Source of the DNA: Octopus sinensis
Lineage: Eukaryota
DNA length: 64,000 nucleotides
Reading direction: 5' to 3'
Assembly (NCBI RefSeq): GCF_006345805.1
Contig: NC_042997.1
Coordinates: 197,098,001-197,162,000 of the forward strand
The notes under the pieces were generated by a model. That model ran no database searches and was not told the origin of the DNA. It saw nothing but the letters and a program-made list of their open reading frames with translations. The position numbers were made by a program, and so were the translations under genes. Below are positions 4,356 to 61,087 of this stretch, piece by piece. Position 1 is the first letter of the stretch. Each line of letters starts with the position of its first letter.

Positions 4356-4400
4356 AGCTTCTACAGGACTAGAACTGTTTCATTCAAAAAAAATCATCAA
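4356..4400 (-). ncRNA. Degenerate hammerhead-like motif in a Penelope-like terminal fragment (element about 4345-4470)
   Basis: Minus strand reads tTGATGA-ttttttttgaat-GAAA-CAG-ttctagtc-CTG-TA-GAAGCT. Stem III and the GUA site are intact; stems I and II are decayed. Confidence 0.45.
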
Positions 4401-4734
4401 TAAATTAATTCACTCTGCTATGTATTGAGTACCTTATTTACTGTGGTTAACCCCGACTCAACCCGGGACCTACATATATATATATATATATATATATATA
4501 TATATGATGAGCCAATGAGACAAACTCTAATCGCATGTTATTAGAGCTACTAGAATCTACCTCCCTCACCCTCGCATGAGGCATCTTGGTTAAAAGATAG
4601 AAAAAATATATAGTCTATTCCGAGATTGAAAAACTTTCTTTGTCCACATACGAAAAATACGTTTCACCCGATTTCTATTCGATCCACTTGGCCACGAGCT
4701 GTTGCACTACAATAATTGCAAACTTAAGACGCGG

Positions 4735-4890
4735 AGCAGGCAGAATCGTTAGTAAACCGTAGCGATCTCGTTTGCTCTTCATTCTCTCTGCGCTGATGAA
4801 TAAAGCACCAGTCGAACTCTGGGTTCGATATAATCGACTTACGCCTCCTCCGAACTTGCTGGCCTTGTGCCAAAATTTGAAATCAATAAT
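4735..4890 (+). mobile_element. SINE family B, old degenerate copy
   Basis: GGCAGAATCGTTAG head, TAAAGCACCAGT...CGATATAATCGACT core and GGCCTTGTGCCAAAATTTGAAA tail. Confidence 0.6.
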
Positions 4891-6629
4891 TATCGACTCG
4901 TCGTTATATCGATCTCATATTGAAATTTCTAAAAGAATAATTCAAAGAATTCTTATTCCAATAAATGACTTCTCTTTAAGTGTATTCTTTGCGTAAGTCT
5001 ATGATAACATCATTAAACTCTAAGTCGTGTTGTGTTTATTTGTTAATGAATAAATTCCTCGCATATCCCTTACATAAAAATGCTACGATACAAATGTTTG
5101 AAATATTCTATATTTCAGCAAATTATAGAAGATATGTTTGTTTGTTTGCTTTCCTTCTTAGATTATATTGCAGCACATTCTATAATGAGTCACGTTTGAG
5201 ATATGCTACGTATGAATAAATATTTTAGATAACTAACTCAATTATAGATCTTAGTCTGTTACACTGAAACGTGCTTCGAATGAAGAAGATCATTGAAGAA
5301 CTCCCAGACCTAAGAATACTTATTACTATTCAATATTATTAAACCTAAGTGTTGTTTCTTCAAAGTATACGTGCTGGCGATTGCTGGATTGTTCTTAGCT
5401 GTACATTCTGTTACTCAGTTTGTTTGGTGATAAATATTGAATCTTTGTTTCTCTTTAATATATACGTCACTTGCTTGTTTTTTAATTCTGTAGCATGAAC
5501 ACAAACAGAATATATTATCTGGGAGTTAGGGATTCAAAAAAAAAAAAAAAAACAGTATGCCTTGCCCTCTGTGAGAGACGTAAAAGGGAAAGAAAAACAT
5601 TGATAAATAACTGATTGGTATTTCTAAATAGAAATTCTATTCAGACGAACAGTGTAAACTGGTTGTACAATATTATGATAAAGATATAGAATAATAATAA
5701 TAATTTGAAGAACAGCATCCACATTATTAATGATAAATCTTAGTGGTGTGTAAAAAACGATTCTATCGCTGTGATAAGTAAATTAATCTAAAATATAAAG
5801 AGGAAGGAAAAAATTGCTGATCATGAATGTCTGCTGCAGATTTGACTGGTTGAGCAGACAGCTGTGTAATGTTTACCATTAAGTCAACCATGCAGAAACC
5901 ATTGACAAAACTATTCATTTATTAATATATATATATATGTATATGTTGCCAATTAAACTAAAAAAAGAAACAACCCCAAATTAAACAAGGAAATGCAAAC
6001 CTGTACAAATACAGGAACTACGAAGAGTATATAAGTCAACGAGAAGCTATATACACAGCTTAAATAAATATTTATTTTAATAACATACATTCTAAAAAAG
6101 TTTTTTCATTAATAGAATTTCTTTATTTCATTCGAAGGAATTTCAATATGTTATACAGAAAACGATGTCTTTGAAATATGATGTCTTTTTTTTTCCTGTG
6201 TTGTAAAGTAAATACTTAATCTAATAAAGCATATTTATTATTGCGCACTTTGGTCAATCCATTTCCTGGGAATGGTACGTAGATGTCAATAAGTCTTTGG
6301 GTAATGACCTTAATCTAACACCCGCTGTAACACTACACTCTCCTTTAGGATGCCTTTCGAAAACTCAAAACTCCTTCAGGAATTTTGCACTGCCAGTAAT
6401 GATGTTTTTTTCTTTCTCGTATCTGCGATTCGCTAAAAAACATCACGACGCCACTACACATTCTTAGAATTAAGTACTCAAAAGATATTTCGAACCATCT
6501 TTGAACTAATTCTCGAACTAGTTCGATTAGATGGGTCATATTCCTTGACACTTCACTAAAAAATTCCACGTTCAAGTTGTTGTAGCTGTTATTGCTGTTG
6601 TTTATAGCATATTTGTGTGCATATATATA

Positions 6630-6832
6630 GTTAATCCAAACAAGAAAACAAAAAAAACACAACAACGCAAGGACGTGGAACAAATAAAGTATTATTGGAC
6701 GCTCAGGAAAGAAGGGAAGAAGGAGGGTTTAACGTTTCGAGCGGAGCTCTTCGTCGGAAACATAGGAGAAGGAAAGATCCCGAGAAGGTAAGACAGAAGA
6801 AAAGAAATCGCCAGTGGTACTCACGAGGTCAC
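6630..6832 (-). mobile_element. Non-autonomous Penelope-like/retrozyme-type element carrying a minimal hammerhead
   Basis: TA-rich flanks, contains the motif at 6727-6761, and is related to the copy at 33130-33308 (opposite strand) and the stub at 9989-10045. Confidence 0.6.
6727..6761 (-). ncRNA. Minimal type I hammerhead ribozyme-like motif (CCGACGA core variant)
   Basis: Minus strand: GTTT-CCGACGA-A-GAGC-tcc-GCTC-GAAA-C-G-T-T-AAAC. Stem I GTTT/AAAC, stem II GAGC/GCTC, loop-less palindromic stem III (ACGT), putative GUU cleavage site. Confidence 0.7.
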
Positions 6833-58400: not shown

Positions 58401-58659
58401 ATAGGGGAAATTAATTTGACATTTTAATTTTCATATAAGTGATACGTTCGATTCTAATTTTAATTTCTTTGGTCGTGTTTTGGTGGTGGTGGTGGTGGTG
58501 GTGTGGGGGGTGATTGTCCCAAGTTGTTTATATAGTTCAATATACTTAAGCAAATGAAATGCGGTCGACAATACATGTGACCGAAGAGTACACGTGAACT
58601 TATATTCTCACTGAAACTCCGAGACGAACCTTTCACCTCAACAGCGAAAGACGATTACA

Positions 58660-58856
58660 GCGATGGCGTCTGCGCCATAATACACAAAAGGGTCATATTG
58701 GGTTGCAGGCAGAAGCATAACTTAACCTGCTGCTGGAACACGCTCGACAGCGGCCGGTCGGCCGGCTGCCGGGTCAGCATACGTGAGGAGCGTAGTGGTC
58801 TCATTGGTCGGAGCCAGTTTAACCTATCCCACGATGAACACCGCCAGCCGTCACAT
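58660..58856. promoter_or_regulatory. CpG/GC-rich island with CCAAT boxes: candidate promoter or first non-coding exon
   Basis: Sharp local GC/CpG enrichment that is unique within the window, ATTGG at 58697 and 58803, near-palindrome CAGCGGCCGGTCGGCCGGCTG and a possible minus-strand donor CAG|GTTAAG at about 58727. Confidence 0.4.
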
Positions 58857-61034
58857 GCTTATGTACATTCCTTTATGTACACTGATGTGTTCTGCTTTTT
58901 ATATTTAACCCTACAGTCTCTTATGTGGTGGTTTAATAAAGTATGTGATTGAGTATTATCTGGTAATTGATATTTGGTTTAGATGTATTTCTCCATTTTC
59001 TTATCTTGTATTAGTAATTTGTGGTAAATCATTTTACCTTTGCCCATATAATACCGTAAATGAATTGATTGCATCGCAATCATTAACATTTATGTATTAA
59101 CTTTGTTGGGTACTTCACTAGCAGCATATTGGATATACGTTATCCCATAGAAGGTTGCATTTACAACCCCTGTCTCAATTTGTATATATATATATATATA
59201 TATATATAATTATCACCGTAGAAGGTTTTTTAATATGCTAGCCATTAATAAAATTTTGTGAGAAAAATTAAGTATGTGTATATATATATATATATACAGA
59301 GAGAGAGAGAGAGAGAGAGAGAGAGAGAGAGAGAGAAAGACAGAGAGAAAGAGATTGAGAGATAGATAGAGAGATATAGATATATAAATTTATAGCAAAC
59401 CTAACTCCGTTATACACTAATATAATCCTCCTACTATTCTCATCTTGTTTTACCGTCACATCATGTAGGCGGTTGCAGATTCCCGCCTCGTTCTACTGCC
59501 TGACATATTCAGCCTCATTCTCAAGATAAAGAATTGAATCCTTACTAAAATCACGGGGGTTAGATAATTCTCTTTCCCTTTTTACATTGACATTTATGTG
59601 ATACACGATCCCTACTGATCGGCCCCACTTTCTTTTTCTTTTCACGATCCCATTTTGATCGGAATTCGCATCCCCTTTTTCCCTTTCTCTTCTTCCCCCC
59701 AAAAAAGCTCTACTTTGTATTTTGTCCCTTCTGTGTTTAGCCCTACGTGGCCAATAAAGAAATCTATGCAGGTAAACTCGTACCTGCCTCACTCCTGTAT
59801 ATCACTTCTGCAACAGTTTTACATATTTGTTCTACATAAAATAACCCTAAACGTTTACATGAAAGAAATACAAGTCTCTTCAAAATAACAGTACATTTTC
59901 TCATCAAAACACCACGTCAGATTTCCCTACGATTTACATTACTTACAAATGAAATATATATATATAGTGTACACTATCTATAATATACACCCGCAGTTTC
60001 AAACAAAAAAAAAACTGTGTTACAAAACCAAAAAAACAAAAATCGACACCTGCAATATATCAATTAGGAAGAAAGATTTCTGACAACATCCTGCAGACAG
60101 AAACGGTAGTAGCTGCTGGGAGACTTACTCTTGTGTCAGATAGAATCAATATATATTAACTGAGCTCGATGGTTGAAGGCCGCTTAATTCATCGACAGTT
60201 CATTTTAGGTTTACATGCAGAGTATCTAATAATCAATCTCTCTGCTGTGTTTATTAGGCAGTTAATTACTAATGTGATTTTTCATTTGAACGCATTTTTT
60301 TTTTTACCATTTGAAGACATGAAAGAGAATAAGACTACTAATAATATTTTATACTTGAATAAAAAAATCTTAATTTTTGAGAAATATTTGAAATTGAGAA
60401 TTGTGACATATATCGCATTTCGAAAGGAATGATTGACGTAAATTGTAAAGGATTCGAATGCCATAGCATTTAGTTGAGAACTGAATACAATTAAGGCCTC
60501 AGTTAACTGAGTACGTAGATGTTTGCTGTTACGAATGTGGAAAAAAAAATCTGGATGTCGTTCTCTAAAAATATGCAATGGTTTCCCATGTGAAAACAAA
60601 TCGATAATTGATATTGAATGTATTGTCGAAACCTTTAGTGTCCGACGAGTAAAGGAAGCATGTATGTCAACACAATTCCCTTCTTCTTTCTTATATATGC
60701 ACACATACAAACATACCAAATTTAACAAAGAAATGAGGAAGAGCCTTAATCGATTTAGGACCGTTTGCGGGGTCTCACCAGCGGCGTGCGGCGTGCACAT
60801 CACTTAAACGATGCCAGATAAACAAATAGCCAATCCATTTATATACTCATCAATTCTAGTATCTATTAAGAACTTAAGCTACTAAATTCTATACTATGAA
60901 TGCTTGATAATATTTAAAAACAGAGGACTGTCAGCGAAGAACCCAATCCACAAAGTATCAAGGTATGATATTAGTAAACCTACGTACATTTACAAACATG
61001 TCGGATTTACTTATTTCTCCGTAGTTTGAAAAAT

Positions 61035-61087
61035 AACGAGCGACTCATTCGATTTTCGACCCTTATTGGGGTTTCATCAGTGCTGTT
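61035..61087 (-). ncRNA. Type I hammerhead ribozyme-like motif with canonical core
   Basis: Minus: AACAGC-a-CTGATGA-a-ACCC-caataa-GGGT-c-GAAA-a-TC-gaat-GA-GTC-GCT-c-GTT. CUGAUGA, GAAA and GUC are all present, with single mismatches at the base of each stem. Confidence 0.65.

Follow-up and report, generated by a model that had tools for sequence, protein, structure and literature searches.

Minimal type I hammerhead ribozymes are scattered through metazoan genomes, where they derive from truncated Penelope-like elements (PLEs) and number ~2,000 to 9,000 per genome (Cervera and De la Pena 2014, PMC4209133). The insertion of PLEs into (TA)n, their inverted arms, and their tails have also been described (Craig et al. 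2021, PMC8557442), while retrozymes are defined by tandem units together with circular RNA (PMC7229834; Li et al. 2026, 10.64898/2026.07.22.740005). Here, we consider a 64-kb stretch of the octopus Octopus sinensis (NC_042997.1, 197098001-197162000; hereafter, the window), analyzed against its 2.72-Gb genome assembly, in which a first-pass annotation had listed nine type I hammerhead motifs and assigned them to non-coding, retrozyme-like mobile families. The motif population is real and mostly ordinary, consisting of PLE stubs and providing an instance of published PLE biology. We consider it very probable that seven of the nine motifs represent repeat ends that bear a hammerhead, that three of their families are 5′-truncated 3′ ends of protein-coding PLEs and a fourth likely so, and that these reached their (TA)n sites through target-primed reverse transcription. 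What is new lies in the variant cores, chiefly a conserved lineage of family B in which the core A6 is replaced by U (A6U).

Seven families (A to G) were defined from the window (Table 1), and the L-numbers used below denote genomic loci outside it. Links to open reading frames (ORFs) were established by walking upstream in the DNA from the hammerhead-bearing repeats. From family A, this walk crosses a CA-rich untranslated region (UTR) and enters an ORF with a reverse transcriptase (RT) motif, a linker, and a GIY-YIG nuclease. Three loci (L159, L160, and L167) are collinear over RT (YIDD or CIDD), CX4CxxC linker, GIY-YIG, ~2 kb of 3′ UTR, and the family A hammerhead, and of 30 loci chosen by the family A 3′ UTR, 8 have the nuclease domain upstream. 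A 275-residue piece of the ORF has 113 homologous proteins (best E 1e-87), most of them with RVT_1 and some with GIY-YIG Pfam domains. The ORF of family B is related to that of A; its nuclease is found upstream on the same strand at L046 and at 4 of 30 unselected loci, and the translations of both families show a CX2-5CxxC linker and two cysteines inside GIY-YIG. For family E, a CCHH-less nuclease with a CxCX5C linker is followed after ~900 nt by the hammerhead at L311, the one copy that displays the Hydra signature (CxCX5C linker, no CCHH, (TA)n insertion, and hammerhead); an initial label of Poseidon was dropped for Hydra on the published clade signatures (PMC8557442). In family C, an RT-thumb fragment is joined to the 3′ UTR at L219. 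The kinship with PLEs that had been suggested for these motifs is thus borne out, with the same termini present on PLE RT/GIY-YIG ORFs in families A, B, and E, and the short ORF-free pieces of A, B, and E (probably also C) are truncated ends of ORF-bearing PLEs and not non-coding retrozyme-like families. A further PLE nuclease, followed by an apparent U3-A8 hammerhead and an inverted arm, is present at L136:2900-3738 (-).

The form of the copies agrees with this reading. A single ORF with RT and C-terminal GIY-YIG is linked to A, B, and E, every copy being frameshifted or partial, and the families show the PLE traits of 5′ truncation, inverted arms, a tail at one end, and partial tandems. Copies of both A and B have a fixed 3′ end and a variable 5′ end. 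All of the top 29 family A copies terminate at one site in (TA)n, and at least four TA units occur within 60 to 200 nt 3′ of the core in 27 of 30 unselected family B copies, as against 11.6% of random 140-nt windows. The abutment on (TA)n that had been proposed for most elements therefore holds by count for A and B but is not evident for family F at 28993. The DNA itself thus shows the link to ORFs, the fixed tails, the truncated and inverted copies, and their position next to (TA)n. At L158:5600-8500, a family A inverted partial tandem joins the hammerhead end directly to the 5′ part of the ORF, giving a pseudo-long terminal repeat (LTR) arrangement.

Several points weigh against the PLE reading. 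Pfam GIY-YIG scores on ORF pieces reach only 19 to 20 bits against a cut-off of 22.6, and Pfam RVT_1 was not matched on the frameshifted ORF pieces. The family C link is one internally deleted copy, and no ORF link was found among the 24, 14, and 19 loci examined for D, F, and G, respectively; where RT pieces occur close to F and G loci, unrelated DNA lies between them and the repeat. A (TA)n target existing before insertion is presumed, the putative Neptune/Nematis and Hydra clades are assigned by linker motifs and not by an RT tree, and hammerhead cleavage is here a prediction from sequence.

In a mechanism modeled on PLE biology, the GIY-YIG nuclease of the element would nick TA-rich DNA and the RT would copy the element RNA from the fixed tail, 100 to 130 nt 3′ of the hammerhead, with target-primed reverse transcription usually stopping after a few hundred bases. 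Priming so near the hammerhead, followed by an early stop, would explain why most stubs retain the hammerhead and lose the ORF, and palindromes may arise by fold-back or from a second cDNA. The hammerheads likely serve the source elements in dimer- or protein-assisted RNA processing, whereas those of solo copies are likely dead-on-arrival passengers. Solo minimal hammerheads did not cleave as monomers and cleaved only at a low level as dimers (PMC4209133), and the hammerhead of a lizard PLE depended on the protein and was not required for in vitro insertion (PMC11167929). The window copies are unlikely to cleave a host transcript because they have no intact same-strand partner in the window and the palindromes would self-pair. 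The suggestion that an active copy could cut host pre-mRNA is therefore unsupported: the copies are solo, stem III is minimal, the cores are non-canonical, and no host exon was found in a Pfam scan that covered 142 of the 346 unique ORF pieces in the window plus 200 kb of flanking DNA. The sole match in that scan is a transposase fragment (PF13843) at L077:1007-1336, ~60 kb downstream of the window.

Among the nine motifs, only that at 61035 (family G) has the anatomy of a retrozyme. Same-strand pairs 282 to 304 bp apart occur at 6 of 19 family G loci and in the window, as head-to-tail units of ~300 bp; head-to-tail hammerhead units of 150 to 450 bp were found for G alone and not for A to F, and no protein-coding parent was found for G, as opposed to A, B, and E. 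Family G is also old, with 123 candidates in the genome, most of them only 70 to 77% identical, and the window motif carries G10.1A and G at H17. On balance, we lean slightly toward family G alone being a non-autonomous retrozyme. Outside the window, a tandem hammerhead pair at L234:1-560 (473 bp apart, with a long stem III and cores that are canonical) outranks everything in the window as a candidate retrozyme, and a second tandem pair, 431 bp apart, is present at L086:1500-1980.

The cores of the PLE-linked families raise a different issue, that of activity. Stems I and II, a palindromic stem III, and the NUH site are present in intact natural copies of all seven families. The motifs fit the published minimal consensus CUGANGAH...GAAAN-palindrome-NUH (PMC4209133 supplement); among intact relatives, the stems differ yet stay complementary around a common core. 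The invariant CUGANGA/GAAA core is not kept throughout, as B has U6, A mostly C4 (U4C), and F U3-A8. Canonical cores occur in C, G, and part of A, D, and E, and no window copy has a core that is both fully canonical and intact. The most intact hammerhead copy in the window, at 6727, has intact stems I and II, an additional A after A9, a U4C core, and a GUU site. A search with family A gave 1541 candidates and its exact pattern 8,483 genomic matches, with none for the reversed control; by hand count, position 4 is C in 71 and U in 29 of the first 100 listed of these matches. Family B gave 2223 candidates, and its 29-letter pattern, in which positions 6 and 7 are free, has 13,148 exact genomic matches and none when reversed. 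Hand counts over the first 100 listed of the 13,148 gave U 99, C 1, and A 0 at position 6 and U 48, A 23, C 17, and G 12 at N7. An alternative register for the B core was rejected because stems I and II would break.

Selection on the fold was gauged in 25 family B copies not selected for the family, with 55 selected copies and the window copy excluded. Polymorphic columns (second letter at least 15%) number 1 of 30 in the core and stems versus 31 of 105 in the flank (Fisher p 0.003), a contrast tempered by columns that are not independent, flanks with slippage-prone runs, and a detection that favors a conserved core. H17 in the unselected copies is A in 14, U in 7, C in 2, and G in 1, and in a flank-based tree, the N7 and H17 states mostly sort by subfamily, whereas U6 is common to all. 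The source lineage of family B thus appears to have retained the hammerhead fold with U at position 6. A family B tandem with hammerheads 374 bp apart is present at L006:230-760.

Whether the retained fold cleaves is a separate matter. We give an even chance to the hammerheads of the dominant families being catalytically dead, with A6U and U4C having hitch-hiked in successful source elements and the fold, if kept, serving as a binding site for a PLE protein. Changes at A6 give low, and U4C lowered, activity in vitro (PMC3088659, PMC7151607), hammerhead mutants left insertion by the lizard PLE in vitro unimpaired (PMC11167929), and copy 5′ ends do not fall at the cleavage site, truncation at which was sought by eye in the family copies and not seen. 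Against this stand the near-invariance of the B core and stems relative to their flanks, all four letters at N7, and G in only 1 of 24 at H17, a pattern typical of hammerheads. A dead core would be compatible with the PLE-stub reading, as it concerns activity only. Less likely, though still worth entertaining, is that the commonest hammerhead found in this genome represents a natural A6U variant that works: U would have become fixed in a Penelope lineage at a supposedly invariant site, and the lineage would have been amplified into several subfamilies under ribozyme selection, cleaving with the aid of its own protein, dimerization, or an altered metal preference. U4C, A6C, and U3-A8 are natural variants on record, U4C and A6C being weakly active in vitro (PMC3088659, PMC7151607). 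No natural A6U hammerhead was found in our literature search, which did not cover Lunse et al. 2017 (PLE hammerhead variants) or one supplement of PMC4209133, either of which may list A6U; that search also returned no paper on an octopus hammerhead. If A6U cleaves, the natural hammerhead core is broader than present search descriptors permit, and ribozymes of this kind would be overlooked in animal genomes by standard descriptors and Rfam. If A6U is inactive, PLEs can spread without cleavage, and the fold is retained for another purpose. Two related lineages with weakened-looking cores beside canonical sister subfamilies provide a natural experiment on the role of the hammerhead in PLEs, on the scale of >8,000 (U4C) and >13,000 (A6U) exact copies.

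It is improbable that the population as a whole consists of non-autonomous retrozymes, that is, of short hammerhead units spreading as circular RNAs through PLE enzymes acting in trans. The family G pairs, the further tandem pairs at L234 and L086, and the start of all 24 D copies shown within ~25 nt of stem I would suit such a route, but A, B, C, and E run on into long 3′ UTRs and PLE ORFs and the G copies are decayed. Moreover, a family-specific regular expression found no second same-strand core in 29 A or 30 B loci, although it missed an older separate copy in L019, and L006 holds the B tandem.

The strength of the motifs as such was assessed with descriptors. The window is 33% G+C and rich in microsatellites, which dominated the output of tandem-repeat and repeat finders. 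A strict type I descriptor that accepts U or C at position 4 matched only 6727(-) in the window and nothing in 15 block shuffles; one core mismatch added 33184 (shuffle mean 0.27), and two gave 5 matches versus 2.5 shuffled, the extra three being none of the nine motifs. Observed matches therefore exceed shuffled sequence under strict and one-mismatch settings and approach it at two mismatches. A second descriptor, type I plus U3-A8 covariation, matched 6727 and 28993. A comparison sample of 1.0 Mb from outside the window, made up of 10-kb stretches (80 spaced, 20 adjacent), gave 6 canonical matches to this descriptor versus 0.12 shuffled, with A6U matches at 2 versus 0.38. Family context recovered five further motifs as decayed or variant copies. 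Minimum free energy folding gave stems I and II for the A, B, and F copies in the window and the full set of three for a C copy; the copies of D, E, and G that were folded did not adopt the hammerhead fold. An Rfam scan of the window returned no hammerhead among the 150 listed of 368 matches, and a genome search with RF00163 gave 7 matches among 74 scored, all from families other than A to G. Of 12 loci, L081 alone exceeded the Hammerhead_1 threshold, which the intact copies from families A to G did not reach. Other canonical-core families absent from the window occur at L095:8000-8100, L126:9030-9100, L105:3855-3910, and L081/L084/L085/L255.

Two of the nine motifs were rejected as hammerheads. 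That at 34599 translates as the last residues of the ORF of a long interspersed element (LINE), longer copies of which carry a zinc knuckle and a restriction-like nuclease. That at 55168 is single-copy (1 candidate in the genome search); it lacks stem II, and its predicted fold is not that of a hammerhead. No family context surrounds the D-like 9-mer at 5408, which was dismissed. Chance matching in AT-rich, repeat-rich DNA, which accounts for 34599 and 55168 and for the two-mismatch level, has a negligible probability for the rest and is refuted for seven of the nine by the 8,483 and 13,148 exact matches against none for reversed patterns and by seven families with different yet complementary stems.

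The first-pass annotation was thus right that several hammerhead-bearing mobile families exist, with separate genome-wide families for seven motifs, and the stem sequences it quoted are present in the window. Its density of one motif per ~7 kb matches the 9 family copies that cover the core in the window, including three it had missed (639, 9537, and 60781), but this density is local and ascertained because the families were defined from this very stretch and the 1.0-Mb sample holds only 30, or ~1 per 33 kb.

Table 1. Hammerhead families and rejected motifs in the window (positions within the 64-kb stretch)
Positions	Strand	Feature	Details or basis
528..650	-	Older family B copy	U at position 6; missed by the first-pass annotation
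4340..4472	.	Family C stub between (TA)n	Inverted hammerhead arm (4357-4398, minus) and plus-strand tail
6629..6832	-	Family A, 5′-truncated PLE 3′ end, linker of Neptune/Nematis type	(TA)n on both sides
6727..6761	-	Family A minimal type I hammerhead	Descriptors, fold
9458..9626	-	Further family G copy	Canonical core letters; missed by the first-pass annotation
20367..20580	-	Family D palindromic stub	Hammerhead 20473-20510, inverted arm 20517-20580
27383..27556	-	Family E, 3′ end of Hydra-type PLE	
28853..29125	+	Family F palindromic repeat	Minimal hammerhead 28993-29030
33132..33309	+	Family B, 5′-truncated 3′ end of PLE related to A	(TA)n on both sides
33184..33219	+	Family B minimal hammerhead	C at position 6, G16.2A
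34567..34702	-	LINE C-terminal coding end, not hammerhead	Translation, longer copies
43600..43870	.	Second family F palindrome	Internally deleted
55168..55225	+	Single-copy sequence without stem II, not hammerhead	Genome search, fold
60722..61130	-	Family G, two decayed units arranged head to tail	Unit length ~300 bp; both copies broken (cores at 61080 and 60781)

The remaining families vary in preservation. In family C (47 candidates), the core of intact copies is canonical and their stem III measures 4 bp; C3 and the 5′ stem I strand are missing from the arm at 4356. The family E hammerhead (27486-27546, minus; 1833 candidates) combines a long stem II with U4C and a single mismatch in stem I. 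Families D and F are head-to-head palindromes centered just 5′ of stem I, and such copies would make long RNA hairpins instead of ribozymes. An inverted arm is present in 19 of the 24 family D copies shown (263 candidates), and the window hammerhead at 20473 carries U4C and G12U; frequent G12U in the top D matches was rejected as query bias, position 12 being G in 9 of 9 unselected copies. In the family F motif at 28993 (334 candidates), the core is of the U3-A8 type and stem I spans 3 bp. Inversion centers (D, L264-L288; F, L190-L203; C, L212/L219/L221) lie within ~20 nt 5′ of stem I, at short natural palindromes. Directly adjoining the family E stub is the 5′ part of an abundant short interspersed element (SINE)-like repeat (27557-27610, minus). 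Other high-copy short repeats occupy 13387-13604, 35928-36139, 39300-39515, and 51165-51365, and a second fragment of the LINE C-terminus lies at 54496-55005 (+), followed by a local duplication near 54800-55500.

Among known systems, both the solo minimal hammerheads left by PLEs and PLE insertion at (TA)n have published precedents (PMC4209133, PMC8557442). The PMC4209133 supplement file that was searched has no octopus entry. Like the minimal PLE hammerheads of PMC4209133, those described here are type I with a short stem I, an extra base after A9, a palindromic mini stem III, thousands of solo truncated-PLE copies, and a U3-A8 variant; unlike them, the dominant families have U6 or C4 and fall outside the CUGANGA consensus used there. 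Neptune/Nematis-type and Hydra EN+ PLEs (PMC8557442) share the C-terminal GIY-YIG, the CX2-5CxxC or CxCX5C linker, hammerheads, inverted 5′-truncated arms, a tail at one end, and (TA)n insertion, whereas the elements here, placed in putative clades by linker motif, have CA- or TG-rich 3′ UTRs of 0.5 to 2 kb and very many stubs. Non-LTR retrozymes (Cervera and De la Pena 2020, PMC7229834; 10.64898/2026.07.22.740005) resemble family G in its ~300-bp tandem units, type I hammerhead, and lack of a detected ORF; the other six families are solo or palindromic, four of them continuing toward PLE ORFs. Finally, the A6C variant of phage Bcep176 and the U4C variant of a viroid (PMC3088659, PMC7151607) carry substitutions at the same conserved core positions, but in contrast to A6C, which is found in one phage genome, A6U is fixed here in >13,000 genomic copies over several subfamilies.

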